The notes: a model not told the origin generated them from the sequence alone. DNA of 64,000 nt from Spirochaetia bacterium (GCA_965203055.1 OZ241863.1:1312001-1376000), one strand, 5' to 3'. Positions 9,159-58,909 are shown, numbered from the stretch's first letter. Translations and numbers: made by a program.

Positions 9159-9191
9159 GCTTCATTCGATAATAAACTTTGCGAAGTGTGG

Positions 9192-24224: not shown

Positions 24225-24335
24225 CCGCCGGCCGCTACGGGTGTCCTGCCCCACCGGCGGGCACACTCAGCGCTATAGGCCGCCCCCGCCTGGTCTTGAT
24301 TGCCGCTCTCCGGATCATACTGCTACGATGCGGTA

Positions 24336-35134: not shown

Positions 35135-36679
35135 CGTGGTGTGCGGGTCGGTGTAGGGGGAACGTTCGAAGCGGCAGTCCGGCTCGGTGACGCGGGGATC
35201 CTGCTGCGCGCGCAACGCCGCCAGCAGGCGGGAGGAAAGCTGCTCCCGGGTGGCGTCGCAGGCCGGGTCGCCGGCGATGTTGGTGAGGTAGTGGGGGTCG
35301 CGCTCCAGGTCGTACAGCTCCTCGGCGGGGAACTTGCCGAACCCCATCTCGAACAGCGCGCGCACCTCCGGCTCGGCGCGGTGATGCACCATCCACGCCT
35401 TCGACGGCGAACCGTCCAGGTCGGCGTAGGCGATCATGGTGTCCTCGCACAGCGACTCGAACGACGGCGGCGCGGCGCCGGGGTCGTCCAGGCCGCGCGG
35501 GTCGCCCATCGGCCAGCGCTCCGGCGCGAAGTTGCGAACGTAGAGATAGCGCCCGGTGCGAATGGCGCGTTGCGGGTAGGGCAGATTGCCGGCGCGCGCC
35601 CGCGCGACGTGGCGCTCGCGGCCGAGCACCACGTGGTCGCGGGCCGGGTCCACCAGCCCGGCGGCGGGCGATTCCAGCACCGGCAGCAGGCTGCGCGCCG
35701 TCATGCCCTCCGGCCGCGCGACCTGCGCCGCGTCGAGGAACGTCGGCGCCAGGTCCATCAGGTTGACGAAGTCGTGCACGATCCTGCCGCCCGGCACGCG
35801 GCCGGGCCAGCGCGCCGCCAGCGCCACCTCGCAGCCAAGGTCGTACAGGTTGCACTTGCCGCGCGGGAAGCCGGGAATGCCGTGGTCGCCGCTCACCACC
35901 AGCAGGGTGTCGTCCAGTTCGCCGATCTCCTCCAGCTTGGCGAGCAGGACGCCCAGGCCGGCGTCGACGGCCTGACACTCGCCGAGGTAGTCGCAGAAAT
36001 CCTCGCGCACGGCGTGCGCGTCGGGCAGGAAGGCGGGCAGACGCCCCTTGAGATCGTCCGGCTCCAGCCCCCAGAGCTGCTTGCCGGAGCCGCGCTGCCA
36101 CTTGCGGTGGGTGTTGGTCGGACCCCACCAGTAGCAGAACGGGCGCCCCGGCTCGCGCGCGTCGAGAAACGCCTGGAAGTTGTCGCGGGTCTCGTCGTAC
36201 AGGACCTGCTTGGCGCCCTCCACGCCGCGCTGCGGCGCAAGCTCGGAGGCGACGAACGAGAACTGGCCGAATCTGGTGCCGGCGGGGGCGTAGCGGGTGC
36301 GGTCGCCGCCGTAGGGGGCGTCGCGCGGGGTGCCCGGCGACCACACCTTGTAGGTGTAGCCAATGTGATAGCCGGCCGCCTCCAGCGCCAGCGGGTAGGA
36401 GGGGATGGAGGCGTCCCACTCGGCGCCCTGCAGGATCGCGCCGCGCCCGGTCTGCCAGAAGTAGCGGCCGCTCAGGATCGAGCTGCGGCAGGGGGTGCAG
36501 GAGGGCGCCGGCACGAACGCGTTGCTGAACAACGCCCCCTCGCGCGCCACCCGGTCGAAGTTGGGCGTGTCGATGACCGCGTTGGGCGTGCCGCCGCCCT
36601 GCAGTTGGCGGTAGGCGCCGGCGTAGCGCCCCCAATCGTCGGCGAACGCGAACACGATGTTGGGCCGGCGCCGCGCCAT
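35129..36679 (-). CDS. Cys-type sulfatase
   Basis: PNIVFAFADD, SCTPCRSSILSG, GDHG, KCNLYDLG; start trimmed to ATG 36679. Confidence 0.92.
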   Translation of the reverse strand: MARRRPNIVFAFADDWGRYAGAYRQLQGGGTPNAVIDTPNFDRVAREGALFSNAFVPAPSCTPCRSSILSGRYFWQTGRGAILQGAEWDASIPSYPLALEAAGYHIGYTYKVWSPGTPRDAPYGGDRTRYAPAGTRFGQFSFVASELAPQRGVEGAKQVLYDETRDNFQAFLDAREPGRPFCYWWGPTNTHRKWQRGSGKQLWGLEPDDLKGRLPAFLPDAHAVREDFCDYLGECQAVDAGLGVLLAKLEEIGELDDTLLVVSGDHGIPGFPRGKCNLYDLGCEVALAARWPGRVPGGRIVHDFVNLMDLAPTFLDAAQVARPEGMTARSLLPVLESPAAGLVDPARDHVVLGRERHVARARAGNLPYPQRAIRTGRYLYVRNFAPERWPMGDPRGLDDPGAAPPSFESLCEDTMIAYADLDGSPSKAWMVHHRAEPEVRALFEMGFGKFPAEELYDLERDPHYLTNIAGDPACDATREQLSSRLLAALRAQQDPRVTEPDCRFERSPYTDPHTTW

Positions 36680-36683
36680 GGGT

Positions 36684-37415
36684 TCAGCGTCCCTGGACGC
36701 GGTGCATCTCCGCAATCAGCTCCGCGGTCGGCGGATAGTAGCGGCCGGGGACCGCTCCCTCGGCGCGAATCTTCTCCTTGGCGTAGTTCTCGGCCGCTTC
36801 GTGCTCCAGCGCCCACTCCAGCGCCGCCGCGGCCATCCACGACGGCACCACCAGGACGCCGTCGTTGTCGCCGACCAGCACGTCGCCGGGCCGCACCAGC
36901 GCGCCGCCGCACTGGATCTGGCCGTTCTCCTCGGCCGGCGCGGCCGCCAGGCCGCCGTGGAAGCTGCGCTGCCGGGCGTACACCGTCAGCCCGTACTCCT
37001 CGTCGACGATCACGTCGAGGTCGCGGATGGCGCCGTCCACCACCACCCCGTCGGCGCGGTTCAGCGCGAGCTGCAGCAGCTTGACGTCGCCGGCGACCAC
37101 GTCCTGGCGGGAGCCCATGATGTCCGCCACCAGCACGTCGCCCGGCCCGCAGCGGCCCATTGCCCGGTACTCCAGCTCGTCTTCCCCGCCGGTCCGCTCG
37201 CTCATCAGGTCGGGGCGCACCGGGAGAAACCTGAGGGTGCGCGCCCGCGCCGCGAACCGCTGCCGGCCCGGCGTGAGGTTGATCACTCCCTCGCAGACGT
37301 TGAGCGGGGAGCCGAAGTGGCACACGGCGCCGTACACCGTCGCGGTCGGAATCGACTTCAGCCCGTCCAGCACGGGCTGCGGCACTTGCGCCGGTCGCAT
37401 GTCGAATGCTGGCAT
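36684..37415 (-). CDS. RraA-like / HMG-CHA aldolase family protein
   Basis: [45 protein letters not shown]; start trimmed to ATG 37415. Confidence 0.87.
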
Positions 37416-44416: not shown

Positions 44417-45280
44417 CTACCGCAGTCCGGGCACCCAGTTCAGCGCGATCGGCTCGGCCGCGCCGGCGTAGTCGATCTCGAACGGGCGCAACGCCGCGGC
44501 CAGTTCCGGCGCGGCGCCGGGCGGCAGCCGGTTGCCGCGCTCCACCGACGCCACCGTGGCTTGCGTGCGTTCCGGGAGGTCGGGGAACGCCGGGTAGTAC
44601 CACATGGTGAGGCAGGTGCGGCGCGCGCCGCTGCCATTGGCGTGGGAGGCGTGAAACAGGGTGCCGTACCCGACCACGAAGTCGCCGGCGCGCAGCGGTA
44701 CGTCCACTTCGTCGGCGTAGCGCGCGAACGCCGGATTGGCGCCGGGCGCCCGGTACTTGCGGTTCTCGTCGGTGTGCTGCTCCGGCACCAAGTCATGCAG
44801 CGCGTGGCGTCGCAGGTGGGAGCCGGGGACCACGCGCAGGCAGCCGTTCTCCGGGGTGGTGTCGGTCAGGTAGAACATCAGGAACGCCTGGATCGGGACG
44901 GGGGTGTAGCTCACCGGGTCGTTCCAGAAGCGGCCATCCTCGTGCCAGAACAGCGGCGGGCTGTGCGGCGGCTTGCTGATTACCCGCCCGTGGCCGAACT
45001 TGGGGGCGTGGAACCCCAGCCTCGCCAGCGCCTGCAGGATCGGCGGATAGGCGATGAACTCCGCGAACACCGGGTAGCGTTCGATGAACGGGCCGTTCAC
45101 CAGGATCATGCTGCCGGTAGCCACCTGCTCGGCAAAGTGGCGCTCGTCCTGCTCCGCCAGACTGGCGTCACTGGCCTCCCGGAGGCGGTCCAGGAGCCCC
45201 GCGTCCAACACGTCACGAAAGATGAAGAATCCGTCCCGATCGAACCGAGCCCGTTCCGCGCTCACGGTCGCCGCAGCCAT
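44417..45280 (-). CDS. PhyH family dioxygenase
   Basis: FDRDGFF, FWHEDG, ENGCLRVVPGSH, FHASHAN...RRT. Confidence 0.9.
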   Translation of the reverse strand: MAAATVSAERARFDRDGFFIFRDVLDAGLLDRLREASDASLAEQDERHFAEQVATGSMILVNGPFIERYPVFAEFIAYPPILQALARLGFHAPKFGHGRVISKPPHSPPLFWHEDGRFWNDPVSYTPVPIQAFLMFYLTDTTPENGCLRVVPGSHLRRHALHDLVPEQHTDENRKYRAPGANPAFARYADEVDVPLRAGDFVVGYGTLFHASHANGSGARRTCLTMWYYPAFPDLPERTQATVASVERGNRLPPGAAPELAAALRPFEIDYAGAAEPIALNWVPGLR

Positions 45281-45286
45281 GGCCAC

Positions 45287-45315
45287 ACCATACCGCCCCG
45301 CGCTCTCTCAATCAA
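45287..45315 (-). promoter_or_regulatory. Sigma70-type promoter, leaderless geometry
   Basis: TTGATT-17nt-TATGGT-6nt-ATG(45280). Confidence 0.65.
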
Positions 45316-45339
45316 TGCAGACGTTGCGACGCGGCGGGG

Positions 45340-45958
45340 ATTGAACTTGCGGTATCGCAGGACGCGCTGGCCCCGGCGGCCTCCGGCAGGCGCAGCACGG
45401 TGGTCGGACGGGTGGTGGTGACCAGCCAATCGATCAACTCGACGCGCAGCTCCTCCACCGCGGCGCAGTGCCGCGGCAGCGGGGCCAGGTTCTCCTGCTC
45501 CCACGGGTCTGCCCCCAGGTCGTACAACTCGGCGAAGCCGCGCTCCTCCCACTCGGCGCCGAAGCGGGCGAACATTCCGGCCGGGTAGTGCACGTAGCGG
45601 TAGGGGCCGTTGGGTGCGAACTCGGTCACCGCGATGTGGCGCACGGCGCCGCTCCGCCACGCAGCAGAAGGCCCAGGTCGTGGCCGTCGCCGGTCTCCAG
45701 GGCGTCCACTCCGGCCAGGGCGCTGACGGTGGCGGCGAAGTCGACGCTCTCCACCAGCTCGCCGGCCACGTGACCGGCGGGAAAGCGGCCCGGCCAGCGC
45801 CAGATGAACGGCACCCGGGTAATGGCGTCGGAGCATATCCCGGCGCCTTCTCCATGATCCCGAACTCGGCGGCGTAATCGCCGTGGTCGGACGAGTAGAC
45901 CACGATGGTGTCGTCCGCCAACCCGGCGTCATCCAGGAACTGCAGAAACTCGCCGTCA
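45340..45958 (-). pseudogene. Sulfatase C-terminal remnant, 5'-truncated and frameshifted
   Basis: DDTIVVYSSDHGD...EKAPG, RVPFIWRWPG...ESVDFAAT and ELYDLGADPWEQENLA are spread over three frames; the CxPxR-containing half is missing. Confidence 0.85.
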
Positions 45959-45968
45959 ATGGCTATGT

Positions 45969-45998
45969 TTTACAACGGACAAACCTTACACTTACGTT
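45969..45998 (+). promoter_or_regulatory. Sigma70-type promoter of the island, leaderless geometry
   Basis: TTTACA-18nt-TACGTT-6nt-GTG(46005) in an AT-rich patch. Confidence 0.55.
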
Positions 45999-46004
45999 CT
46001 ACCT

Positions 46005-49000
46005 GTGATAACCACGCATTTCGAGAAGTCCCCTAGCCCGCGTATCGTTCGGTCTGCGGAGGACGAGATCACGGCGATTCAGAGGCTTCTCTCTGATGTT
46101 TACCGGGACACCGGTGATGGGCGAACGCTTCTGCGCGAACTCATGCAGAATGCCGATGACGCGCAGGCGTCGCGGCTGGCGTTTGCCGTGGTCGATCAGG
46201 GGCTGCGTAATCCCCAAAACACTCTGCTTGGGGGGCCAGGGCTGATGGTCGTGAACGACGGCTCGTTTCTCGAGCGAGACCAGCGTGCCCTGCATCAAGC
46301 CATAGGAGACGCCAAGTCCGCCGACACGGAGAAGATCGGCCGGTTCGGGGTGGGTCTCAAGAGCGTGTTCCACGTCTGTGAGGCGTTCGTCTACCTCGGA
46401 GCAGAACCCAGAGAACCCGGACCCCCTACGCTCAGGCCGGGCGCCCTGAATCCATGGGCCGGCACCGGACAGGACGGCGACCAGGACCTGCTCCACCCCG
46501 ACTGGGACACCTTGGAACCCAGCGATGCGCAGGTCCTGTTGGACGCCGCCCGAGCAATCATCGGGTTCTTCACTTGCGGACTGCTGTTGTGGATTCCGCT
46601 GCGACGCCGGGCGCATCTCGACCGAGCCCAAGAGGGAGAGCAGGACGGTTTGGGGACAGACCTCGTCGATCCCAAACATGTTGTTACCTGGTTCAGGCAT
46701 CCAGATTCCCTGGCCCTGGTCCTCGCCCAGTGCGGACACCTGCGCTGTGTGGAGGCATTCCGCGCCGACACGATACCGGCATTGGACCCGCGCACCGCTC
46801 TGGTTCGCATCGACCGGCCCTGTTTCGAGAGGCGTTCGTGGGTAGGACGGTACCGTGATGATGACGTTCGTCGTACACGCACACGCACGTTCAAGGGGAT
46901 TATCCGCGCTGGCGACCAGAAGTGGTCCGTGGCGGGCGTCGATGCCGTTGGTCACAAGCGCCTGCGCGAAATCAGAGTGGCGTCAGATTGGCCAAAAGAT
47001 CGGGTTTATGTCGACGGCCGCCGTGATCGGGTTCCGCGCAAGGCGTTAGCTCACGCAGCTATAACCGTGCTGCACCGGCCGGCGGCTGCAACCGGCGGAG
47101 TACGCCTGCGCTGGGCCGTGTTTCTGCCGCTTGATGATGCTGTTAAACAGCCTTACGGGCCCCTCATTGAGACGGTAGAATGCGCCTCCAGCACGGGTTG
47201 GTGGGACATCATCATGCACGGCTACTTCTGGCCGTCCCACGACCGAAGATCGATCCCAGGCGTCACGGACGACGAATCGAGCGTACGAGGCCGGTGGAAC
47301 CGCGGCATCCGCGACGATCTGATGTTGCCGCTGCTTCCGCAAGCGCTCGAATTTGCGGTCCGCGATGTTCCGCAGGATGTCGCGGGCAGGCTGCTGGGTG
47401 CGGTCGACCGTACGGAGATCGTACGGAGAAACAACGCCGCCATCACGAAGAACCATGTGCTTCTGCCTGTTGTTACGGAATGTGGTATGAGGTGGAAGAC
47501 CTACCGTACCGATGAGGCGCGTGTGGTGGCCATTCCGTGGAAGGACGCTCCGAGCAGCGTGCGCAAGGCGTTCGTACGGCGAATCGACAGAGCCTCCGAC
47601 GTCATCTGCATCGACGACGCCGCACCGAGGATCGGGGGAACCCCGCGCGCTTGGCCCGCGGATTTGCTATGCGGTCTGTTGAGCTGCGTGTCCGTTGACT
47701 TGCTGCGAACGCCGCTGGGGTTAGCCTGGGTAGAGCATTGCATTAAGTCCGTCCTTGAGCGGCAGCACGACGATGACGACGACGCACGCCGTACGTCTGC
47801 GCGGCATCTGCGCCTTGCAGGTGGACGTCAGCGGACCGGGCAGGTTGCGGACTGGCTTGCAGAGAGGATCGGAGAAGGTGCGCTGACCGCTTGCTTCGAC
47901 AGCCCACCGGACACTCGACAGAATCTAAGGAAAACATGGCGGCGAGTGTACGAACGCCTGCCGAAAGAGTGGCTGATACCCGCTCCTGTCGAGAGCCAGC
48001 GCGCGGTTGTCGAACTCGCGGACGCGAAAGCTGTGGGTGCCGGGTTGTTGCCGATTCCGTTTGGGGTTCCGCGGGAGACGGCTGCGGCACACCCTGATCC
48101 GGAGCGACTGGACGGCGCCCTGCGGACCTTGGGGATTCTCTTGAGAAGAGAAGGGCTGCAAAGCGAGCATGACGCCCGGCTGATTCTGGCCGAGACCCTC
48201 CTCGCCATCCGTGATGCCCGGACCCTCGGTAATCAACTCGCCCAGTTGCCGCTGATTCGGGCGCTCTGCCTTCCCGAAGGAAGATACGAAGCGTGGTCCC
48301 AAGGCGATCTGCATCGGCGGGTCGCAGAACATCGTGTGTTCGCCCGCGGAGACGAACCATCGTCCGATCAAGTGGACGCCGGAGGTGGGGACGGTGTCGA
48401 TCCCGCTGGGGTACGGACCGGACGAGCTGGGCGGGCGGCCCGGCAACCCCGGCAGGCCGTCAAAGAACTCGCCGAGGCAGTCTGCAGCAGCTTCTGGCTT
48501 GTCCGTAGCATGCCCGCAACAGCGAAGGTGCGTCCGGTCAGTAATGAGGCTCTGGCCGGCGCACTGCTCCATGCCAAGGCGATCAGCAAGGACCCGGAGC
48601 CGAGAAAATCACTCTTAAGCGCTTTGGCCGCCGGAGCCGTAGGCTCGCTGGTCGGACGTGCCATGCGTGTGCTGCTCACCGGCGTGATGGCGGGTGGCTT
48701 AGAAGAGTGCGACATCTACCACGTTCGCAGCCGGGATAATCGAAGAACGCTGGACATTCTGCTCGGCGTCCGGCGCGAGTCATGGCGCGTCGCAGAGCCG
48801 AAACTGATCGATGCCCTTCCCCAACTGTTCGCCAGTCTGAGAATAAAGGAGATTGATCCGGGGGTGCTGCAAGAATTACTCCGGGAGACGTTGGATAAAT
48901 CCTCCGATGATGACTGGCAGCTCCTTCCGGAACCGGACGTGCTCCATCTGCTAAAGCACTTGTATGGGACAGATCGCGCGTTGTGGCGCGCAATGCCGCT

Positions 49001-52000
49001 GCACAAGAGGATCACGGGCGACCGCGGGCGCCTCGACGACCAGACCGCGCGCGCAACGGGAGGAGGTCGGCTGCCGTCCGAGCTTGAAACGGAAGTTATC
49101 CTATTGGAGCCCGATGATGAAGTCGCGGGCCTGTACCTCGACGTTCCGAAACTCGATGATGACGGCGTCCTGCGCATGATGTTGGAGAACGAGCATCCGC
49201 AGCGGTTCGTCAGATATATTATCGATCGACTCCGGTCGGACGGAGACCAGATCATTCTGCCGAATAACCGGCAGCTGCGCGATCTGCTCAAGAGCTGCCC
49301 GTGGCTCCCCGACCGTGACGCATACCTCGGCATCGCTCCGGGGCGACTCCTGTGTATTCCGCCGGAGCTACTGGCCTTGGTCGCCCCTCTATCCGCGGCG
49401 CTTGACGGGCATCGGCTTTCTTCACATGTTGCCCCCGATTGCTGGTCCGTCGCCAAGGACGTTGTGCACGAGATACTCGGGAGACCTAGCTCCGCGACGC
49501 AGGTTGAACGCTTGGCCGATGGGCTCGATACGGACGCTGTCGCTCAAGTTGAATCAGGAGCCTACCTCATTCTGCCTCACGCCGGCGATGTTGACCAACA
49601 GTTGATCGAGGATGCACTTCGGTCTCCGCTCGTCGAATCTCACCCCGGCTGGAAGATCGTACGAACCGCGGCGAATCTCGCGGGAATTACGGGCGGCCGG
49701 GTGCCTCGCGCCGTTTCGCGCCTGGCATGCGCTCTCTGTGCCCCGGTCCCTTCTGACCGCCAGTTGTCTACGCTGCAGCAAATTGCAGACTCGTGTCCCG
49801 GCAAGGACTCTCCCCCCGGCCGTCTGTTCCGCCGCTTGGTCGAGAAGTACGCCGAGGCCGATAACTTATTCTTCCAGAAAGTATTACCGTGTATCATGTT
49901 GCCGACTCAGGACGGCAAATGGCGGCGGGCTTCGAAAATAGCCCAATCGTCGTTCGGTGTCGCGCGGCACCACCGGATATTGAAGGACCTTCGCCGCGCC
50001 CTTCGACTTGATGACGGCGAGTCGGTCGGGAAGGAAGCCTCCGGTAAAACAGTGGTCAGGTCGGGAGAGACATCGGACTACGTGTTCGATCAGTACTTCA
50101 AGCCGTGGAAGGGGCGTCTCAACCGCGGCGCCGTCGGGGCGCTATTGAGTCTGTTCGGGAATGGCAACAGGATCGAGTTGCGCAGCGCCGACAACGAAGG
50201 CGCTATGCGACGGCTTGCCCAGAGTTGGCTCGGCGAAGTGGACGTTTCAGAAGTGCGGCGAAATTTGACCGGCGCCGATGAAGCTCCTTTTTCTACCGTC
50301 CCCGTGTTCGTTGTAGGGAGCAAGGAAGACGGGCGGGTCACGGCGGTCAATATCCTGGGCAACTCGGTAAGTATGACGGCTGACCGGGACAACAAAACCA
50401 TCTTCGCGACCGCCCCTAAGCGGGACAGGGCGGGTTTCTGGGAGGTCACACTGCGCCACGTGGAGCCCGCGAAGCACAGCGCGCAAAAACTCTACGAGAT
50501 GCTTGGCACGACCATCGAACTATGGGCAGTTAAGTACCTTAAAATCGACCGTCGCCGGATGCTGGAGTGGTGGCGGCGGTGGGGGACAGGCTCGCAGGCT
50601 CAGGTGGAACCGGTGAGAGCCCTGATTCTGGCCAATCTTCCCCTTACGCTCAGGAGGCTCGACGTGCGCGAGTGCCCAGCGTTGCAGGCCGCCGTCACAG
50701 ACGCGGAGCGGGCGCAGAGAAGGCGTGGACAGGCGGCCGGGCAGGAGCCGTATGCCGACCCCGCGAAGCGGGCGCTTGATCGTCTTGCATCGCTCATAGG
50801 CAAGCCCGAGCACAGCGATTTCCTGAGGGGACGAGTCCGGGACCGGATGGAAAGTTCCGGCTACACGGCCGAAAGCACCTTGCTGGAACTGGTGCAGAAT
50901 GCGGATGACGCGCTGGCGCAGGCGCGCGAGATCGCGGGACGCGAGCTATCGAAGGACGCGCGCAGCGTTGTGGTTCGCGTCGATGAACACGTCGGGCAGC
51001 CAACTGTCGACCTCAAGCACTTCGGGCGCCCGATCAACGACACCGGCGACGCCGAGTTTCTCGCCAGGCAGGATCGGGATCGGGAATGGGATCAGGACCT
51101 CTATTTCATGATGCTGATGGATCTAACCGCAAAGCCGGGCGAAGCCTCGGGGTCAGGAGCAGTGGCGTCGACGACCGGATGCTTCGGTCTCGGATTCAAG
51201 TCAGTCCACTTGGTTTCCGACGCTCCATCGGTGGTCAGTGGGTATATCGCCTTCTCCATCGCTGGCGGCCTGCTGCCAAAAGAGGAGCAAATCCCGGACG
51301 ATCCGGACCTGGAGTCGGTGGACGGCCAGCAGGTTACGCGTATCCGTCTGCCCCTGCGCCACGACGATGACTTGATTACCCGGATGTTCTGTCGCTTCTG
51401 CCACACCCGGTTCTTGTTACCCGCCTTTGCTAGAGAACTCCGGGAGATCGTGGTCGAGGGTGGGCCGTGGCCTGGAGTCAGTGTCTTCGACTGCGAACCG
51501 GTCGCAGGAGCACCGGGATGGTCCGTCGCCAGAACACCTGCCGAGCTCCCGAACGGCGGGTCGTGGCGCATCCTGCGCTTCCGGCCCGGCGGCGCGGAAA
51601 CCGGCACCGCGGCGCTCGTCCTGGGCCTCTGCGATGAGATGCCGGCTCCGTTCCCGCCCGACGTGTCGTTCCTCTGGAACGTAACTCCCACCACGGAGCT
51701 CTGGGGCTGCGGGTACGCAGTCAACGGACCATTCAAGCTCGACCACGGCAGGACACACGTCGCGCTGGATCACGAGAACACCCGGCGCGCGGCCATTCAG
51801 CTCGGCGAAGCGCTTGGAAAGGGGCTTGTGGCACTGCACGATGCGCTCGCCAATGATGCGGGGCCGGCATGCGGCCTGCCCGGAAGAGAGGGCGTCGCGA
51901 CCTTTACCGCGGCCCTCTGGAATGTGCTTTCTTCCGGAGTCGACACCGAAGATACCCTCCGCCGCGACTTCCTTGGCTGGCTACAAGGTCTGGGCAGCGG

Positions 52001-53690
52001 AATCTCGGCGTGGATGTTCGCCCGCTCTGTGGTGCCGTCGAAACTCCCGGCACCCTTCGGCAAACAGCTTCCGCCGTTGGCGTCGGTCAGGCGGCTGGAG
52101 GACATGCGGATCGAGTTCGTGGAGAACGGCGACTTGTGGCGCGCTGTCGCCGGTATCGAGGATCTGGCCCAGCTGGCGCGGAACCATCTGGTTGTTTCGG
52201 ATGCGGTAGCGGAGCGTCTGCGCCGGCTGTTGCCGAGGATCGAGATTAACCCGCTACAACCGATGGATCTCTTCAGGGAGCTGGTGGAGAGTTGGAGCCA
52301 CTGCCTTACACCGGAACGGCTGCATGCGCTGCGGCCAATCGAGCCGGAGCATGTCTGGAAGATGATCGGCGCCGAGTGGCCCACGAATCTTGTCGCTCAA
52401 TCGGTCGCCGGGGCGTTCGTTCCTTTGCGCGAGCTGTTGCTTCCACCGGGCCCGGAGACATCGGACGACGAGCCGAAACGCGCGGCGTTCGCTCCCGACG
52501 CGCACGTCCTGGACAGCGCCTACACACCCGAGGACGCGGCGGTGTTCCGCCGGCTGCGGATGCGGCTCCAAATCGATTCCGCCACCATGGCCGCCTGGTT
52601 CACCGACATCGACGACTCCAAGCGTCCCGCTGCGCTGCGATATCTGTTACACGGCAACCTTCAAAACGAAATCCTGGAGAAGCTCGTCCCATCCGAGACC
52701 CGGCCGCCATGGCTGAGCGACCATAGCGACGTAAGCCGTATGGTCGATGGCCTGAGCGACCCCTGGCGATGTGAATCTCTCCTTATCGCTCTGTTCCCTG
52801 ACCACGGGCGAAGCGCACCGGACACCCCAGGCGACCCTGAGACCGACTTCGCGCTCCACACTCACCCGCCGCCCGAGGACTTCTTTGAACGACTCCAGGA
52901 TTGGTGGGACGATTCGAGCAACCGACAAGTCGTCCTCGGCCGTCACGAGACGGAGACTTGGCCCGATTGGCTCAGAAGGGGCCGTATCGACCGTGATCTC
53001 GGTCAGGACTCCCACGACCATTGGCTTGCGCTGCTCGTCTTGGGTGCCTGCCAGGGACTTGGCCGCTCGGGGCTAAAACAGCACCGGGGTTTTCTCGAGG
53101 CTGCCCACCGCAAAGGATGGTGGAAGGTGTTCAAGCGGCCCAGCGAACCCGCAGACTGGATGGAAGTGCTTCGCTCCTGGCATGACAGCGCCGTGGACAC
53201 CTTAGAGTACTCATACTGGATGTCACTCTTTCCGACCATCTACTTGCTCAGTCGCTATCTGCGCAAATACCGGGACTTGTTGCGTACAGCAGATCAACGT
53301 CCGAATCTCGACGATCTGACACGGCTTCTGGCCCCTCGGAGCGATTCAGCGCTGAGCGGCGCCGGCCGCATCTTCGATGCGCCGCCAGCGCCGCTCAACA
53401 TGGGTTTACACTGGATCCTGCGCGAACTCGTACGGCTTGATGTTCTCGGCCGCGTTGAACACCTCTTGCCTTACTGCTGGGTGCCGTCGGACCAGGTACT
53501 CCGCTTCCTCGAGCGTCTTGGTCTTCCGTATCCTGAGAGCAACGCCTCCAACTCCGACAAAGCGCGGGCAGTGTACAACTTTCTTGAGCCGAGATTGAGG
53601 ACGCCACATCTTCATTACGCATTCGACATTCCGCTGCGCTACGTTGCCACCAATAAATACCTGCAGCGAAAGCTCGGTTTGTCGGACTGA
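46005..53690 (+). CDS. 2561-aa sacsin-like protein with two GHKL/HSP90-type ATPase modules
   Basis: Module 1: LRELMQNADDA...VVNDG...IGRFGVGLKSVFH...MHGYF. Module 2 (about 50880-51210): LLELVQNADDA...HFGRPIND...TGCFGLGFKSVH...VNGPF. Confidence 0.85.
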   Translation: MITTHFEKSPSPRIVRSAEDEITAIQRLLSDVYRDTGDGRTLLRELMQNADDAQASRLAFAVVDQGLRNPQNTLLGGPGLMVVNDGSFLERDQRALHQAIGDAKSADTEKIGRFGVGLKSVFHVCEAFVYLGAEPREPGPPTLRPGALNPWAGTGQDGDQDLLHPDWDTLEPSDAQVLLDAARAIIGFFTCGLLLWIPLRRRAHLDRAQEGEQDGLGTDLVDPKHVVTWFRHPDSLALVLAQCGHLRCVEAFRADTIPALDPRTALVRIDRPCFERRSWVGRYRDDDVRRTRTRTFKGIIRAGDQKWSVAGVDAVGHKRLREIRVASDWPKDRVYVDGRRDRVPRKALAHAAITVLHRPAAATGGVRLRWAVFLPLDDAVKQPYGPLIETVECASSTGWWDIIMHGYFWPSHDRRSIPGVTDDESSVRGRWNRGIRDDLMLPLLPQALEFAVRDVPQDVAGRLLGAVDRTEIVRRNNAAITKNHVLLPVVTECGMRWKTYRTDEARVVAIPWKDAPSSVRKAFVRRIDRASDVICIDDAAPRIGGTPRAWPADLLCGLLSCVSVDLLRTPLGLAWVEHCIKSVLERQHDDDDDARRTSARHLRLAGGRQRTGQVADWLAERIGEGALTACFDSPPDTRQNLRKTWRRVYERLPKEWLIPAPVESQRAVVELADAKAVGAGLLPIPFGVPRETAAAHPDPERLDGALRTLGILLRREGLQSEHDARLILAETLLAIRDARTLGNQLAQLPLIRALCLPEGRYEAWSQGDLHRRVAEHRVFARGDEPSSDQVDAGGGDGVDPAGVRTGRAGRAARQPRQAVKELAEAVCSSFWLVRSMPATAKVRPVSNEALAGALLHAKAISKDPEPRKSLLSALAAGAVGSLVGRAMRVLLTGVMAGGLEECDIYHVRSRDNRRTLDILLGVRRESWRVAEPKLIDALPQLFASLRIKEIDPGVLQELLRETLDKSSDDDWQLLPEPDVLHLLKHLYGTDRALWRAMPLHKRITGDRGRLDDQTARATGGGRLPSELETEVILLEPDDEVAGLYLDVPKLDDDGVLRMMLENEHPQRFVRYIIDRLRSDGDQIILPNNRQLRDLLKSCPWLPDRDAYLGIAPGRLLCIPPELLALVAPLSAALDGHRLSSHVAPDCWSVAKDVVHEILGRPSSATQVERLADGLDTDAVAQVESGAYLILPHAGDVDQQLIEDALRSPLVESHPGWKIVRTAANLAGITGGRVPRAVSRLACALCAPVPSDRQLSTLQQIADSCPGKDSPPGRLFRRLVEKYAEADNLFFQKVLPCIMLPTQDGKWRRASKIAQSSFGVARHHRILKDLRRALRLDDGESVGKEASGKTVVRSGETSDYVFDQYFKPWKGRLNRGAVGALLSLFGNGNRIELRSADNEGAMRRLAQSWLGEVDVSEVRRNLTGADEAPFSTVPVFVVGSKEDGRVTAVNILGNSVSMTADRDNKTIFATAPKRDRAGFWEVTLRHVEPAKHSAQKLYEMLGTTIELWAVKYLKIDRRRMLEWWRRWGTGSQAQVEPVRALILANLPLTLRRLDVRECPALQAAVTDAERAQRRRGQAAGQEPYADPAKRALDRLASLIGKPEHSDFLRGRVRDRMESSGYTAESTLLELVQNADDALAQAREIAGRELSKDARSVVVRVDEHVGQPTVDLKHFGRPINDTGDAEFLARQDRDREWDQDLYFMMLMDLTAKPGEASGSGAVASTTGCFGLGFKSVHLVSDAPSVVSGYIAFSIAGGLLPKEEQIPDDPDLESVDGQQVTRIRLPLRHDDDLITRMFCRFCHTRFLLPAFARELREIVVEGGPWPGVSVFDCEPVAGAPGWSVARTPAELPNGGSWRILRFRPGGAETGTAALVLGLCDEMPAPFPPDVSFLWNVTPTTELWGCGYAVNGPFKLDHGRTHVALDHENTRRAAIQLGEALGKGLVALHDALANDAGPACGLPGREGVATFTAALWNVLSSGVDTEDTLRRDFLGWLQGLGSGISAWMFARSVVPSKLPAPFGKQLPPLASVRRLEDMRIEFVENGDLWRAVAGIEDLAQLARNHLVVSDAVAERLRRLLPRIEINPLQPMDLFRELVESWSHCLTPERLHALRPIEPEHVWKMIGAEWPTNLVAQSVAGAFVPLRELLLPPGPETSDDEPKRAAFAPDAHVLDSAYTPEDAAVFRRLRMRLQIDSATMAAWFTDIDDSKRPAALRYLLHGNLQNEILEKLVPSETRPPWLSDHSDVSRMVDGLSDPWRCESLLIALFPDHGRSAPDTPGDPETDFALHTHPPPEDFFERLQDWWDDSSNRQVVLGRHETETWPDWLRRGRIDRDLGQDSHDHWLALLVLGACQGLGRSGLKQHRGFLEAAHRKGWWKVFKRPSEPADWMEVLRSWHDSAVDTLEYSYWMSLFPTIYLLSRYLRKYRDLLRTADQRPNLDDLTRLLAPRSDSALSGAGRIFDAPPAPLNMGLHWILRELVRLDVLGRVEHLLPYCWVPSDQVLRFLERLGLPYPESNASNSDKARAVYNFLEPRLRTPHLHYAFDIPLRYVATNKYLQRKLGLSD

Positions 53691-53692
53691 CT

Positions 53693-56368
53693 ATGCGACT
53701 TCCACCGGATTCAGTGGTCCGGCACGCGCGGTTCGGCCGGGGTCAGGTCATTATAGACGATGGCCGGAGCGTGGTGGTCCGTTTCGAACACAGTATCGAG
53801 GATTGCCTTCGGACCGACCTGGAATTGCTGCCCGGCTTATCCGAACGGGCAGCAACTGCCCAATTCGACCCCGCCGTCAACGTGGTAACCCGCATTCTGG
53901 GCAACTGCATCCTGTCGGTGAACGACTCGTGGGGCGTCTTTTCCTGTTCCCGAATTACGCTGCTTCCGCACCAGCTTTGGGTGTGTAAGCGCGTGCTCGA
54001 GTCGTGGCCGACGCGCTGGCTCGTCGCCGACGATGTCGGCCTTGGCAAGACCATCGAGGCAGGCCTGATTCTTACGCCCTTGCTGTCTTCCGGTCGTGTC
54101 CGTCGCCTTCTTATCCTCGCTCCGGCAAGTCTGGTAGAGCAGTGGCAGATGCGTCTGCGGGAGATGTTCGACATCCGCATCCCGATATACGCCGCCGCAG
54201 CCGACACGCCGAGGTCCGACTACTGGAACACGACCGACAAGGTAATAGCTTCTGCGCATACGCTGCGCATGAACACTGGCAACCGCTGGGAGCGGCTCAC
54301 GGAGGCGGCGCCTTGGGACTTGATACTGGTAGACGAGGCGCATCACATGAACGTCGACGAACAGCACGGACGTACGCTGTCCTTTCAGCTCATGGAGCGC
54401 CTCCATCGGCATGCCCGCGTCCGGTCACTGGTCCTGTTCACGGGTACCCCGCATCGCGGCAAAGATTACGGATTTCTCTCTTTGCTCAAGCTGCTGCGCC
54501 CCGCCGAATTCGACCCGCAGAAGCCGCTCGAAGCGCAGTTGGGAAAGCTCCGCAGTGTGATGATCCGCAACAACAAGCAGCGCGTCACGGACATGGAGGG
54601 TCGGTCGGTCTTCCTGCCGGTACGGCCGCGCAGCGAAACCTACTCCTATTCTCCGGAGGAGGAGCGGTTCTACGCGATGCTCACCAATTTCATCCTCAAA
54701 GGAAAGGCATACGCTGCCGGCCTTGGTCAGCGGCAGCGGCGTATGGCGATCTTGGTACTGATCACGATGCAGAAACTGGCCTCTAGCTCGATCGCTGCCG
54801 TGCGGCGTGCCCTCGCCGGGCGCCTGGCGCGACTTCACGGCACCAAATCGAAGTTGGAGAATGCCGTTCGATACCGGCGGCGTATCGAGGAGCTGGAGGC
54901 CGAAGACGACGCCGCCAATCAGGACGAAATATCCTGGCTGGAGGAGCTGTTCCTCGACAGTGTCGGCGATGCGATCAAGCTGAACCCGAACGAAATTCCG
55001 GCGATTGAAGAACTTCTTGCCGCCGCCGACGACGTAGACCAGGAGACAAAGGTAGCGCGCATCCTGAACGTGGTTGACCAGCAATTCCCAGGTCGCTCGG
55101 TGTTGTTCTTTACCGAGTACAAGGCGACCCAGGCACTGCTGATGAGCGCCTTGCATGCCCGATACGGCGACCGCTGCGTCACTTTCATCAACGGCGACGG
55201 ATTTATCGACGGAGTAAAGGATGCGACGGGACGCGAGTCGAAGATAACCGACGATCGACGTGAGGCCGCACGTCGGTTCAACGGTGGAGAGGTCCGCTTC
55301 CTCGTCTCTACCGAGGCAGCGGGCGAGGGTATCGACCTGCAGGAGTGCTGCAGCGCACTGATCCATGTCGATCTGCCCTGGAACCCGACGCGTCTGCATC
55401 AGCGGGTCGGGCGGCTGAGCCGTTACGGGCAGACCGAGCCGGTCGACGTGGTGACGGTACGCAACCCGGAAACTGTTGAGAGCCGGGTCTGGGAGTGCCT
55501 GGACCGGAAGCTCGATCGGATTACGCTAGCCTTTCAGGGAGCGATGGAAGACCCGGAAGACATGCGCCAACTTGTGATCGGCATGGCGTCGCCGAGGATG
55601 TACACGGACGTGTTCGCCAGCGCCCCCGATCTGCGCGGCGAGCGTCTGGAAGAGTGGTTCGATTCGAAGACTGCGACCTTCGGCGGCGAAGATGCGGTGA
55701 AGACCGTCGCCAGCATGTTCGGGAACGTCGCTCGGTTTGATTTCGGGGAGGCGGCCGCCCAGATTCCCAAAGTAGACCTCCCTGACCTGATCCCGTTCTT
55801 CAAATCGCTATGCGCCATGCTGCGTCGGCGGCCGACGCGGATCGACGACGTTCGCCTGGAATTTCATACGCCGCAGGAGTGGACGAAGGACGACTTTACG
55901 ATCGCTGATCACTACGCGCTACTGTTCGCCCGAGAGTCGCGCCCACGGGAGGGGGAAGACATCGCCGGGATCGGGCTTCGGGTGGTGGACCGGGCGCTGC
56001 GTGCGGCCGTTGACGCTACGGAATCGCTGGCGGCCATGCGAGATTTGGCCGGCCCCTTGGTCGTGTTCGCCCTTCGGGATCGGATCACCGGTTCGGAGCG
56101 CACGGTGCGTAAAACTGTCGTTGGCATGCAACGCGCTCACGATGGAGCCTGGGGGTTGCTGAGAGACTGGGAAGTGCTGAAACTCTTGAACCCGGCTGCC
56201 GACAGACCGCGCAGTACCGTGTTCGATGCCAAGCCCTCAGGGCAGGTGGGTGTAGCGGCGCTCCTGACCGAGGCCGAGCAGCACCTGGAGGCGCGGCTCG
56301 ACGACCTGAATTTACCGTTTCAGCTGCCTGTGATGGAGCATCTCGCCTGTCTGATTCCCGGACACTGA
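53693..56368 (+). CDS. SNF2/RapA-family SF2 helicase
   Basis: LLPHQ, LVADDVGLGKT, DEAHH, TGTPH, STEAAGEGIDLQ, LPWNPTRLHQRVGRLSRYGQ; starts 2 nt after the upstream stop. Confidence 0.93.
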   Translation: MRLPPDSVVRHARFGRGQVIIDDGRSVVVRFEHSIEDCLRTDLELLPGLSERAATAQFDPAVNVVTRILGNCILSVNDSWGVFSCSRITLLPHQLWVCKRVLESWPTRWLVADDVGLGKTIEAGLILTPLLSSGRVRRLLILAPASLVEQWQMRLREMFDIRIPIYAAAADTPRSDYWNTTDKVIASAHTLRMNTGNRWERLTEAAPWDLILVDEAHHMNVDEQHGRTLSFQLMERLHRHARVRSLVLFTGTPHRGKDYGFLSLLKLLRPAEFDPQKPLEAQLGKLRSVMIRNNKQRVTDMEGRSVFLPVRPRSETYSYSPEEERFYAMLTNFILKGKAYAAGLGQRQRRMAILVLITMQKLASSSIAAVRRALAGRLARLHGTKSKLENAVRYRRRIEELEAEDDAANQDEISWLEELFLDSVGDAIKLNPNEIPAIEELLAAADDVDQETKVARILNVVDQQFPGRSVLFFTEYKATQALLMSALHARYGDRCVTFINGDGFIDGVKDATGRESKITDDRREAARRFNGGEVRFLVSTEAAGEGIDLQECCSALIHVDLPWNPTRLHQRVGRLSRYGQTEPVDVVTVRNPETVESRVWECLDRKLDRITLAFQGAMEDPEDMRQLVIGMASPRMYTDVFASAPDLRGERLEEWFDSKTATFGGEDAVKTVASMFGNVARFDFGEAAAQIPKVDLPDLIPFFKSLCAMLRRRPTRIDDVRLEFHTPQEWTKDDFTIADHYALLFARESRPREGEDIAGIGLRVVDRALRAAVDATESLAAMRDLAGPLVVFALRDRITGSERTVRKTVVGMQRAHDGAWGLLRDWEVLKLLNPAADRPRSTVFDAKPSGQVGVAALLTEAEQHLEARLDDLNLPFQLPVMEHLACLIPGH

Positions 56369-56450
56369 TCAAGTAATTGGGTCGATGAGCAGAGCGTATC
56401 CGCAGATACCCTACCTTGGCTGCCCCCGTGACGTGGAGGAGTAACCGGTA

Positions 56451-58043
56451 GTGGCGCGTACGTTCAATACCGCAGGTCCGGTGGTGGCCGCGGACCATTA
56501 TTGCATCCCGCCGCTGGAACGGATCGATCTCGCCACCGTGCTCGGCTTGATCCGCGACAAGAAGTACTTCGTGCTGCACGCGCCGCGCCAGACCGGCAAG
56601 ACCTCGGCGCTGCTGGCGCTACGCGATCTGCTGAACGGCGGCGAGCACGGCGATTTTCGCTGCGTGTACGCCAACGTCGAAGCCGGCCAGGCGATGCGCG
56701 AGAACGTGGCGGAAGGCATGCGCACGGTGCTTGCCGAACTGGCGCTCCAGGCCAGCGTGACGCTGGGCGACGAGACGCTCGACGAACTCTGGCCCGGCGT
56801 GTTGGAGCGCGTGGGGCCGGGCGCGGCATTGCGGCACGCGCTGCTGCGCTGGAGCATGGCCGACAGGCGCCCGCTGGTGTTGCTGATCGACGAGATCGAC
56901 GCGCTGGTCGGGGACACCCTGCTGGCGGTCCTGCGCCAGTTGCGCGCCGGCTACGCCGACCGCCCGGCGCGCTTTCCGCACAGCATCATCCTGTGCGGGG
57001 TGCGCGACGTGCGCGACTACCGCATCCATTCAAGCGCCGAGAACCGGGCCGTGCTCGGCGGCAGCGCCTTCAACATCAAATCCGAATCGCTGCGGCTGGG
57101 CGATCTTTCGCCGCAGGAGACGCGGGCGCTGCTGGCGCAGCACACCGCGGCGACCGGGCAGGGGTTCACGGAGGGGGCGCAGGCGCTGGTCGGCGCGCGC
57201 ACCGCCGGCCAGCCGTGGCTGGTGAACGCGCTCTGCTACGACGCCTGCTTCCGCCACCCGCCGGGGTGCGACCGCTCGCGTCCCATCACCGCGGCCGCGG
57301 TCCTGGAGGCGCAGGAGCGGCTGATCCTGCGCCGCGACACCCACATCGACGATCTGGGTCACAAGCTGCGCGAAGAGCGCGTGCGGCGCGTGGTGGAGCC
57401 GATTCTGACCGGCGCCGACCGGCAGGCATGGTCGGCCGAGGATGTCGCCTACGCGCGCGACCTGGGACTGGTGGCGCAGGACGCCGCCGGCACGCCGCGC
57501 ATCGCCAATCCGATCTACGCCGAAGTGGTGCCGCGGCACCTCAACTACGCGGTGCAGGCGGGGCTGACGCAACAGATGGCGTGGTACGTAGGCGCGGACG
57601 GCGCGCTGGACGTGGCAGGCCTGGTCGCGGCGTTCCAGGAGTTCTTCCGCGAGCACTCCGAGCACTGGGTGCAGCGCTTCGAGCGGTACCACGAGGCCGG
57701 GCCGCAGTTGCTGCTGCAGGCGCACCTGCAGCGCATCGTCAACGGCGGCGGGCGGATCGAGCGGGAGTACGCGCTGGGGCGCGGGCGCACCGACCTGCTG
57801 ATCGTGTGGCCGCAGGGCGGGCGCGAACGCCGCTTCGTGGTGGAGTGCAAACTGCTGCGCAAGGACCTGGAACGAACCATCGCCGAGGGGGTGGAGCAGA
57901 CCCGCGGCTACATGGACCGCTGCGGCGCGGAGGCAGGACACCTGATCGTGTTCGACCGCGCCCCGAACCGAACCTGGGCCGACAAGATCTTCCGGCGCGC
58001 GCCGGCGGGCGGCGGCGCTCCGGTCACGGTCTGGGGAATGTAG
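56451..58043 (+). CDS. AAA-type ATPase with C-terminal PD-(D/E)XK nuclease-like domain
   Basis: Walker A APRQTGKTS, Walker B LLIDEID, C-terminal REY...GRTDLLI...VVECK. Confidence 0.87.
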   Translation: MARTFNTAGPVVAADHYCIPPLERIDLATVLGLIRDKKYFVLHAPRQTGKTSALLALRDLLNGGEHGDFRCVYANVEAGQAMRENVAEGMRTVLAELALQASVTLGDETLDELWPGVLERVGPGAALRHALLRWSMADRRPLVLLIDEIDALVGDTLLAVLRQLRAGYADRPARFPHSIILCGVRDVRDYRIHSSAENRAVLGGSAFNIKSESLRLGDLSPQETRALLAQHTAATGQGFTEGAQALVGARTAGQPWLVNALCYDACFRHPPGCDRSRPITAAAVLEAQERLILRRDTHIDDLGHKLREERVRRVVEPILTGADRQAWSAEDVAYARDLGLVAQDAAGTPRIANPIYAEVVPRHLNYAVQAGLTQQMAWYVGADGALDVAGLVAAFQEFFREHSEHWVQRFERYHEAGPQLLLQAHLQRIVNGGGRIEREYALGRGRTDLLIVWPQGGRERRFVVECKLLRKDLERTIAEGVEQTRGYMDRCGAEAGHLIVFDRAPNRTWADKIFRRAPAGGGAPVTVWGM

Positions 58044-58048
58044 CGCGA

Positions 58049-58909
58049 ATGGCCCTTGCGGCAACGGAAGCGCTCGGCAAGCGAGATGAGCTGGTAGCGC
58101 GCGGCTACACCTCGATTCCTGGGGTAATGCCGCCGGCGATGGTGGCGGAGTTGCGCGCGTGGTCGGACGCCATCTTCGCCCGCACTCACGTGCGCTACTC
58201 GATCCGCTATCAGGGCAGCGATCTGTTCGCGCACACCGGGCGCGGGTGGGCGGCCATGGCGCCGGAGCGGAGGCGGCAGGCCGAGGCTGATCCGCGCCGG
58301 TTTCGCGATCCCTGGGCGGAACGGATCATCGGCCTGCCGGCGCAGGCGGCCGCCTGCCGCGCGCTCGGACTGGAGGAGCTGCGCGCCGATGAGGTGGTGA
58401 TCATCCTGTCCAAGCCGGCCCACGGCCCGCCGCTCTATTGGCATCAGGATTTCATGCAGTGGCACAGCCCGAGGGCGGCCACGCCGTGGCCGACGCGCAT
58501 CTTCCTTTCCTACTACCTGGTGGACACGACGCGGGAGAACGGCTGCCTGCGGGTCATCCCCGGCAGTCACCGCAAGCGCCACCGACTGCACGATCTCCCT
58601 GACGCCCACGGCGAGGAGCTGCAGGCGCTGGAGGACCTGTCCCATCCGGCGTTCTCCGACGACCCCGACGCGGTGGACGTGCCGTTGCGCGCCGGCGACC
58701 TGCTGATTGCCGATGCCCGCCTGCTGCACGCCGCCTGGCCCAATCGCACCGACCGGCGCCGCACGCTGCTCCTGGCTTGGCACGACGTGTTCTCGTTTCC
58801 GCGCCCGCCGAGCTGGTGGCGCGGCGACGTTCCCGCCGCCGTCCGCAACGCCGATCCCGCCGCGCGCTACGAGAACAGCGTCCGCACCCCCAGCCACTAC
58901 CTCACCTGA
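58049..58909 (+). CDS. PhyH family dioxygenase
   Basis: LYWHQD, ENGCLRVIPGSH, LLHAAWPN...RRT; start trimmed to ATG 58049. Confidence 0.9.
   Translation: MALAATEALGKRDELVARGYTSIPGVMPPAMVAELRAWSDAIFARTHVRYSIRYQGSDLFAHTGRGWAAMAPERRRQAEADPRRFRDPWAERIIGLPAQAAACRALGLEELRADEVVIILSKPAHGPPLYWHQDFMQWHSPRAATPWPTRIFLSYYLVDTTRENGCLRVIPGSHRKRHRLHDLPDAHGEELQALEDLSHPAFSDDPDAVDVPLRAGDLLIADARLLHAAWPNRTDRRRTLLLAWHDVFSFPRPPSWWRGDVPAAVRNADPAARYENSVRTPSHYLT

Follow-up and report, generated by a model that had tools for sequence, protein, structure and literature searches.

Genes for GHKL ATPases encoded beside superfamily II helicases are known already, and a new form of this theme is described here from a stretch of 64,000 nucleotides (nt) of a Spirochaetia bacterium (GCA_965203055.1, OZ241863.1:1312001-1376000; the whole stretch is called the window below), where a gene for a giant protein with two GHKL modules of the sacsin/Hsp90 type (the giant) is followed directly by a gene for an SNF2 ATPase. 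What appears to be new is the double-GHKL giant with SNF2 as a constant pair. The pair is a real and widespread cassette that moves between distant phyla, and it most likely serves in defence against foreign DNA (phage or plasmid), a function to which a probability of about 60% is assigned.

The published systems are characterised here from passages of the cited papers. In the MORC/paraMORC loci a GHKL ATPase is encoded beside a superfamily II helicase, including SWI2/SNF2, in laterally mobile loci resembling those of restriction-modification (R-M) systems (PMC2292703), and helicase-aided, ATP-driven looping or clamping of DNA was proposed as their role (Iyer, Abhiman and Aravind 2008, PMC2292703). 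The pair shares with them the GHKL ATPase encoded beside SWI2/SNF2, and the N-terminal segment of the giant has MORC2 on its list of structural matches; however, the operons in those passages usually hold nucleases and methylases as well, whereas the GHKL module of the giant is of the sacsin/Hsp90 type, occurs twice per chain and belongs to a protein of about 2560 amino acids (aa). The word sacsin has 0 occurrences in that paper. Tiamat is a single-gene anti-phage system whose protein, TmtA, comprises a GHL ATPase followed by DUF3684 and a NOV_C/PD-(D/E)xK nuclease (10.64898/2026.09.30.754977); the same preprint places Tiamat-like proteins often beside helicases, including Swi/Snf, and in its passages multiple ATPase domains are mentioned only for SACSIN and for Tiamat-like SACSIN homologues. 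The N-terminal module of sacsin/Hsp90 type is common to both proteins, and the TmtA models match residues 25-126 of the giant with up to 76 bits, but these alignments (residues ~18-128) take in about 90 of the 1300-1650 profile positions, and the giant shows no DUF3684 or NOV_C nuclease, carries a second GHKL module and another C-terminus, and is nearly twice as long. Eukaryotic sacsin, with its three Hsp90-like repeat regions, DnaJ and HEPN, is likewise a giant chain of repeated sacsin-type ATPase modules, and human SR1 (5v44-5v47) is the best match of the giant in both sequence and structure; in contrast to sacsin, the giant is bacterial, shows no DnaJ, HEPN, UbL or XPCB domain, has halves that are alike in the ATP-binding core only and is paired with an SNF2 motor.

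The SNF2 partner also has described relatives. Class 1 DISARM (10.1101/2021.12.28.474362), ARMADA (10.1101/2025.09.15.676423, PMC13463889) and ietHAS (PMC13069673) each include a RapA-like SNF2 motor, ArmA and DrmD being described as RapA-like Swi2/Snf2 ATPases (PMC13463889, 10.1101/2025.09.15.676423) and HmaA as such a motor fused to NOV_C (PMC11232893). The core of class 1 DISARM consists of DrmA (helicase), DrmB (DUF1998) and DrmC (PLD) (10.1101/2021.12.28.474362), and ARMADA combines the SNF2 protein ArmA with the methyltransferase ArmB, the YprA helicase-nuclease ArmC and the UvrD-like ArmD. The SNF2 of the pair falls in the same clade as DrmD, ArmA, BrxHII and HmaA, with RapA as the nearest structure, but in the passages cited the motors of DISARM, ARMADA, BREX and Hma have a methyltransferase as working partner, together with a nuclease or a helicase of YprA/DrmAB type, whereas the constant partner here is the double-GHKL giant and neither a methyltransferase nor a nuclease is conserved; beside the pair, no methyltransferase, DUF1998 or UvrD-like gene is conserved in the 55 regions compared, and the PADLOC and NCBIfam results contained no ARMADA model. 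From BREX the pair differs in that the giant has no BREX match and the SNF2 matches BrxHI/BrxHII in the helicase core only. HmaC was considered as a GHKL partner and rejected, as PADLOC describes it as an AAA+ ATPase. The original prediction called the pair undescribed, which stands in that no paper on the pair was found and the literature yielded no account of a double-GHKL giant with an SNF2 partner, but does not stand in that PADLOC holds this SNF2 subfamily as DrmD, operons of GHKL with SWI2/SNF2 were published in 2008 (PMC2292703) and Swi/Snf proteins beside Tiamat-like ones are described in passages of the 2026 preprint.

The two proteins of the pair

The pair occupies the following positions of the window:

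46005..53690, plus strand: gene of the giant, 2561 aa, GTG start, an open reading frame (ORF) with two sacsin/Hsp90-type GHKL modules
46095..46394, plus strand: ATP-binding core of GHKL module 1, residues ~31-130, with E45, N49 and G112-S120
50862..51254, plus strand: ATP-binding core of GHKL module 2, residues ~1620-1750, with E1628, N1632 and G1725-S1733 and an insertion relative to module 1
52452..53687, plus strand: all-helical C-terminal domain, a hallmark of the family, residues 2150-2561, modelled mostly at 80-95 in the predicted local distance difference test (pLDDT)
53693..56368, plus strand: gene of the SNF2 ATPase, 891 aa, ATG start, an ORF, RapA/DrmD-like

An ORF of 2561 aa with two GHKL modules about 1580 aa apart had been predicted, and the ORF and motif positions agree with it: the ExxQNAxDA box begins at residues 45 and 1628, i.e., 1583 aa apart, the GxFGxG(L/F)KSV box at residues 112 and 1725, and both are invariant across 20 aligned full-length relatives. 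The SNF2 helicase claimed to follow intact after 2 nt does so (TGA-CT-ATG), with its Pfam domains and all motor motifs present, and its translation is probably coupled to that of the giant. A promoter-like element of its own, by contrast, was not recovered for the pair: a sigma-70 consensus scan gave nothing upstream of 46005, its single site within 45700-58300 being intragenic at 47896, against a mean of 1.8 sites in shuffled sequences.

The giant passes the curated cutoffs for sacsin-type GHKL proteins, with SACS as its only Pfam match (93.4 bits against a cutoff of 32.8, residues 31-126) and the NCBIfam model P_loop_sacsin matching in 2 stretches (103.4 bits against 50). Module 1 matches sacsin SR1 in the PDB (5v44-5v47, E-value 4e-15, residues 32-130). 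Module 2 by itself reaches 31.5 bits for SACS in the window protein, just below the cutoff, and a SACS match to it was found in all 29 of 29 family members aligned at E-values up to 1, the best at 1e-9. The N and C halves of the giant align in hhalign with a probability of 91% over 81 columns and show no other likeness; a duplication of a whole repeat was rejected accordingly, since the halves have just this ATP-binding core in common. AlphaFold2 models, covering residues 1-1000 (mean pLDDT 82.6) and 1591-2561 (mean pLDDT 82.9), both resemble the N and M domains of Hsp90/TRAP1 in Foldseek, the C segment with an E-value of 1e-8, while the N segment has sacsin SR1 as its best match and MORC2 (9cdh) at rank 47 with 2.7e-5. 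The giant is composed of two divergent Hsp90/sacsin-type GHKL modules, each with an intact ATP-binding signature, and of long helical regions.

The C-terminal domain of the giant (about 410 residues) belongs to no Pfam family and has no sequence match in the PDB (best E-value 0.66), and a profile of it gathers 1068 representatives at 50% identity with E-values up to 1e-3, 714 of them up to 1e-30; it sits at the C-terminal end in all 150 among the matches listed. A DNA-glycosylase lead for this domain, from AGOG in 10% and DUF2400 in 33% of the members (scores of 0.90-0.91, low recognition), both of which we take to be glycosylase-like families of the helix-hairpin-helix type, was dropped because of this lack of a PDB sequence match and of a Pfam family. 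No DUF3684, NOV_C, HEPN, DnaJ, UbL or XPCB domain was detected by Pfam in the giant, family-wide.

The SNF2 protein contains the Pfam domains SNF2-rel_dom and Helicase_C, and its motifs GLGKT at residue 116, DEAH at 214 and QRVGRLSRYGQ at 570 are kept in 39 aligned members. The PADLOC DrmD model PDLC02634 matches over its full length with 948 bits, and the helicase core is also matched by BrxHI/BrxHII (242 bits, positions 87-609 of 933), HmaA (214 bits) and DpdE; on the other hand, the NCBIfam models DISARM_DrmD (269.8 bits against a cutoff of 610) and DrmD_b (148.3 against 950) fall short of their cutoffs. The nearest solved structure is RapA (E-value 6e-46, residues 87-283), eukaryotic remodelers following at about 1e-19, and the C-terminus gives a weak RapA_C lead, seen in 22% of the members of one cluster. 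E. coli RapA differs in that the NCBIfam RapA cutoff is failed (164.9 bits against 576, helicase N-lobe only) and in that the N- and C-terminal accessory regions are unmatched by sequence; RapA is, moreover, a solitary housekeeping gene. Residues ~8-50 of the SNF2 protein (53693-53850) hold a conserved motif V-x-H-x-x-x-G-x-G-x-V followed by R-F, presumably similar to the small Tudor-like RNA-polymerase-binding domain of PcrA/UvrD. A complex prediction of SNF2 residues 1-95 and 610-891 with residues 2150-2561 of the giant scored 0.00, which speaks neither for nor against binding.

A two-gene cassette moving between distant phyla

A profile scan with a 20-sequence alignment and one genome per species yielded 54 loci, and 39 of these were evaluable, i.e., contained the 3' end of the giant and at least 2.7 kb downstream of it. 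The giant is followed directly by an SNF2 homologue of like orientation in 37 of the 39 evaluable loci, or in 36 of 38 when the near-duplicates L032 and L036 are counted as one. One further locus (L037, 17650-22261) has the SNF2 gene 4.6 kb downstream, past a DDE transposase, an exception explained by the insertion sequence (IS) between the two genes, and another (L054) has it upstream and divergent. The 15 loci outside the evaluable set comprise 9 cut by contig ends, 2 with a shortened giant (L020 and L039), which still carry SNF2, and 4 of a Microcoleus variant (L042-L045), which are without it. Pairs with both ORFs complete are mostly spaced by -4, -1 or +2 nt. The reverse comparison in a plasmid collection agrees, as the giant stands directly upstream in all 5 of 5 records with an SNF2 match of at least 80% coverage (47-49% identity; named 'DEAD/DEAH box helicase', 'helicase-related protein' or 'SNF2-related protein' by PGAP), the next-best plasmid matches falling to 33% identity and 69% coverage. 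Pairwise identities of the giant and of SNF2 are correlated (r 0.97 for 29 loci, 0.88 when the 25 loci of the main clade are taken by themselves), and 0 of 2000 Mantel permutations attained the observed correlation. Once ORFs overlapping the pair were removed, the largest cluster of flanking ORFs was found in 6 of the 55 regions and the next, BrxL, in 5, so that no third gene is conserved beside the pair. The reading of the two genes as one module without a methylase or other partner, part of the original prediction, is borne out by these counts.

The giant has 495 relatives at E-values up to 1e-3 among 8000 candidates scored, the best 120 of which are mostly ~2500-2700 aa long, 41-87% identical and nearly all unnamed or 'hypothetical'. 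The distribution of the cassette is patchy across phyla, most loci are chromosomal contigs of 1-7 Mb, and no match to the giant was present in 50,697 phage records. Purifying selection acts on both genes: between the window and L001, the ratio of non-synonymous to synonymous substitution rates (dN/dS) amounts to 0.38 in the giant and 0.13 in SNF2, and between the window and L018 to 0.39 and 0.14, non-synonymous change being ~3-4x faster in the giant, whose middle (residues ~150-1540) is least constrained (dN/dS roughly 0.3-0.6). The selection proposed earlier for the intact pair agrees with these values.

Variant and damaged copies were also observed. The cyanobacterial giant is encoded by two ORFs of ~800-860 and 1780-1940 aa (L042-L044, L050, L051 and L055), which overlap slightly in L050, L051 and L055 (about 800-830 and 1785-1870 aa), indicating that the first GHKL module can be a separate polypeptide; in plasmid pC33 of Sphingomonas (L058) the giant is annotated as two slightly overlapping ORFs of 1607 and 799 aa, cut just before the second GHKL module. 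The division into two ORFs may be natural, or may come from a frameshift in some of the records. Copies disrupted by an ORF-bearing insert within the giant (L023, 10711-12618), by the transposase of L037 or by truncation of both cassette genes (L039, 13192-14903) indicate that the cassette decays in some genomes. The Microcoleus loci L042-L045 represent a distant variant, in which giant ORFs of 812 and 1941 aa (L043, 9974-20929) are followed not by SNF2 but by a DarG-like macrodomain ORF (169 bits, cutoff 250) and an ORF of 550 aa whose match to a DEDD exonuclease is very weak.

In the window, the pair is part of a transferred block bordered as follows:

45290..45960, minus strand: sulfatase pseudogene, 5'-truncated and frameshifted, found by tblastn, at the left edge of the inserted block
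56451..58043, plus strand: AAA_22/AAA_35 ATPase gene with a weakly PD-(D/E)xK-like C-terminus (Pfam AAA_22, E-value 3e-8)

The guanine-plus-cytosine (GC) content of the pair is 0.623, lower than that of the left (0.675) and right (0.687) flanks, and the GC content at third codon positions (GC3) is 0.711 for the giant and 0.75 for SNF2, against 0.84-0.95 for most neighbouring genes; the hand counts given earlier for this difference (37/60 at 46021-46080, 49/60 at 57121-57180) were reproduced exactly. With the window sulfatase at 35129-36715 as the tblastn query, matches were obtained at 45954-45880 (residues 255-279) and 45799-45647 (residues 302-352), in different frames and with an E-value of 1.3e-5 against the whole window, and Pfam at E-values up to 0.1 found nothing on this remnant; C-terminal pieces in different frames indicate a 5'-truncated, frameshifted pseudogene ending at ~45960, and the sulfatase said to adjoin the pair without its 5' half is therefore real and marks the left edge of the block. 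In blastn against L001, the closest genomic locus, one colinear block spans window positions 46029-58047 at 78.9% nucleotide identity, the flanks outside these common 12 kb being unrelated, whereas the likeness to L018 ends at 56362, the end of SNF2. Low GC and GC3, the truncated sulfatase and the L001-like block with its unrelated flanks argue for the horizontal acquisition that had been proposed, and the locus as an intact, horizontally acquired copy of the two-gene cassette is well supported. The block edges show no target-site duplication or inverted repeats of at least 9 nt, no tRNA and no integrase. The sole tRNA gene of the window, tRNA-Arg (CCG) at 21031-21104 (+), lies away from them.

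As the block common with L001 reaches 58047, it also holds, in this lineage, the gene at 56451-58043, and hence three genes. The product of this gene has a PDDEXK_9 match below the cutoff (E-value 0.007) and no PADLOC or NCBIfam match. As a general third component it was rejected, since among the 54 loci a homologue stands beside the pair only in L001 and L039, none is present in the four plasmid loci L055-L058, and its GC3 of 0.911 is host-like; it represents a lineage-specific neighbour and not a core part, possibly a lineage-specific add-on given the weak PDDEXK_9 match. In L001 (20401-23924), two convergent paralogous AAA_22 copies follow the pair, where the window has one.

The mobility of the cassette bears on two other explanations of its role. 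One of them, that it serves the mobile elements themselves through plasmid maintenance, exclusion of competitors or counter-defence, would fit its presence on large plasmids, two of which were typed as conjugative, the copies of IS3 on both sides of the pair in pC33, and the movement of a block with unrelated flanks as a unit in the window; it is nevertheless highly improbable, given that most loci are chromosomal, that phage records hold no match, that integrase, tRNA and boundary repeats are missing at the window block, and that excluding competing elements in practice equals defence. The other takes the pair for a stress or housekeeping machine, in which a chaperone like Hsp90 or sacsin would work with a RapA-like recycler of RNA polymerase, or for a nucleoid remodeller. 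The structural matches to Hsp90/TRAP1 and sacsin SR1, RapA as the nearest SNF2 relative together with the RapA_C lead, the failure to find a nuclease or methylase and the metabolic neighbours that dominate the window and many loci would suit such a role, but the patchy spread across phyla points to horizontal transfer, and the plasmid copies, one with IS3 on both sides, the GC content foreign to the window, the damaged copies L023, L037 and L039, the defence neighbours of 14 of the 39 loci and the low RapA score, confined to the helicase N-lobe, make it a rather improbable one.

Genomic context and the proposed function

The context was scanned with PADLOC at E-values up to 1e-10 over 145 ORFs of 39 loci (L036 and L045 being left out as duplicates), taking, on either side of the pair, the two ORFs closest to it among those that reach 200 aa, as well as any ORF between the two genes. 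Matches were obtained for 27 of the 145 ORFs, in 14 of the 39 loci, as raw counts without a matched background control, and include PglZ, BrxL, DndD/PbeC, DndH, LeoA/LeoBC, AbiEii, DUF499, HamB-like and NucC-like proteins, parts of type I and type III R-M systems and several PDC candidates. The pair is nested in or lies beside BREX loci in L032, L036, L049, L003 and L041, the same five in which BrxL-type neighbours cluster. In L032 (122-22678; near-duplicate L036) it is located inside a BREX-like operon with all genes on one strand, in the order PglX C-terminal part, UvrD-like helicase, DraG-like ADP-ribosylglycohydrolase, an ORF without assignment, PglZ, giant, SNF2 and BrxL, and in L049 it adjoins BrxL and PglZ. 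Methyltransferases are near the pair in L002, L016 and pDrdI, where a NucS-domain endonuclease and type I M and S genes adjoin it; HEPN, HicB, WYL and RecB-like genes are near it in pC33, and the locus of Deinococcus sp. QL22 has no obvious defence neighbour. In Trichormus variabilis plasmid C, the pair is followed by a C5 methyltransferase and then by DrmC, DUF1998 and DrmA within 11 kb, an arrangement that probably explains the PADLOC label 'DrmD'; this is the only one of the 4 plasmid loci with the DISARM core triplet at 5-11 kb from the pair. A defence-island context, expected from the prediction of an anti-phage or anti-plasmid module, is accordingly seen in the 14 loci with PADLOC neighbours and in the BREX, DISARM and R-M genes near some copies, and a defence role of the pair is likely from this genomic context.

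The same neighbours raise the question of autonomy, as the pair might be an accessory to methylation-based systems (BREX, DISARM, type I R-M), to which it would contribute a RapA-like motor and an ATPase clamp while using their methyltransferase and nuclease. The filing of its SNF2 as DrmD by PADLOC and the core matches to BrxHI/BrxHII, HmaA and DpdE would accord with this, as would the position between PglZ and BrxL in L032, the BREX genes at L049, the BrxL-type cluster in five loci, the DISARM genes and C5 methyltransferase of the Trichormus plasmid, the methyltransferases of L002, L016 and pDrdI, and a BREX-2 PglX located 12 kb upstream in the window, which is the nearest methyltransferase, none adjoining the window pair in the manner of the adenine methylase DrmMI in DISARM. 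Such dependence is unlikely all the same: no partner gene is conserved, with the largest flank cluster in 6 of the 55 regions, 25 of the 39 loci have no PADLOC match among their nearest ORFs, and the 40 window ORFs scanned contain neither DrmA, DrmB or DrmC (PADLOC, E-values up to 1e-5) nor, beyond PglX, PglZ, BrxL or any other BREX core gene (PADLOC). Likewise, no full match to DrmA, DrmB or DrmC exists among the 145 nearest ORFs of the 39 loci, the sole Drm matches there being weak helicase-C matches of one L007 protein to the DrmD and DrmA models. Moreover, a defence system embedded in a BREX locus need not belong to it, which counts against dependence on BREX.

Several observations weigh against defence as the function of the pair. 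Searches with Pfam, PADLOC, NCBIfam and PDB profiles found no nuclease, methylase, toxin or other effector domain in the giant and SNF2, and no phage or plasmid phenotype was found for any family member. The 25 loci mentioned above are without a PADLOC match among the two nearest ORFs on each side, some of the matches elsewhere are generic (methyltransferases, an IscS/DndA-like protein, a reverse transcriptase) and their background rate is uncontrolled, and the neighbours of the pair in the window are sulfatase, PhyH, GH32, PfkB and ABC-transporter genes. A target other than DNA is possible in view of the kinship with sacsin and Hsp90, which are chaperones of proteins, and with RapA, which works on RNA polymerase. 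Furthermore, as no nuclease or methylase was found, we infer the mode of action, a clamp coupled to a DNA translocase, from the analogy with Hsp90, MutL and MORC only.

If the pair acts in defence, the SNF2 motor would track along double-stranded DNA, and the two GHKL modules of the giant would pair upon ATP binding, as in the dimers of Hsp90, MutL and MORC, either inside a single polypeptide or, if the gene is naturally split, between two polypeptides. The paired modules might then encircle DNA, or a target bound to it, as a closed clamp, and the invading DNA, trapped or remodelled, would be blocked in replication or expression or be passed to a nuclease encoded elsewhere, the marks of self and non-self perhaps being borrowed from neighbouring BREX, DISARM or R-M systems. 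An immune machine of this kind, free of nuclease and methylase, in which a heterodimer-like GHKL clamp of one chain (or, in cyanobacteria, two), loaded or driven by a RapA-like SNF2, would silence or eject invading DNA through entrapment or remodelling and not through cleavage, is a tentative proposal and seems doubtful in its full form; if true, it would parallel in prokaryotes the MORC-plus-SNF2 silencing of eukaryotes and could shed light on the tandem ATPase modules of sacsin. The family itself is large, spread over many phyla as labelled in the records, and almost wholly 'hypothetical', and if its role is defence, present catalogues would overlook a common module of two genes or wrongly list it as an isolated 'DrmD'; a module in which no nuclease or methylase is recognisable would then point to a different way of stopping foreign DNA. 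In addition, the giant offers tandem ATPase modules of the sacsin type in a tractable bacterial protein and could inform the function of multi-module sacsin proteins.

Other features of the window

The remaining features are distributed over the window as follows:

7822-9195, minus strand: 457-aa ORF with a C-terminal HNH domain, beside the specificity-subunit fragment
9192-9584, minus strand: fragment of a type I R-M specificity (S) subunit, 130 aa
22646-23899, minus strand: paralogous HNH ORF
24300-25412, plus strand, and 33904-35052, minus strand: YhgA-like (Transposase_31/Rpn-family) paralogues
30279-33920, plus strand: PglX methyltransferase of BREX-2 type, full length (NCBIfam NF033451, 1615 bits against a cutoff of 400; PADLOC PglX, 1627)
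12210-13712, 21141-22970 and 35129-36715: intact sulfatase genes, in addition to the pseudogene at 45290-45960
19240-20652, 44417-45286 and 58052-58909: PhyH-family dioxygenase genes

The claim that nearby R-M genes had decayed stands for the S-subunit fragment and does not stand for PglX, which is full length. No other Pgl or BREX gene lies within the window, and this PglX, whose gene adjoins the YhgA/Rpn-like gene at 33904-35052 (-), looks like an orphan or a remnant of a Pgl system. Both HNH ORFs show weak matches to the IscB HNH region, far under the cutoff, and the two YhgA-like paralogues suggest repeated mobile-element activity in the region. The PhyH genes on either side of the transferred block are paralogues with 50% identity, and the host region, with its sulfatases amid ABC sugar transporters, GH32 and PfkB genes, looks like a locus for the utilisation of sulfated glycans.

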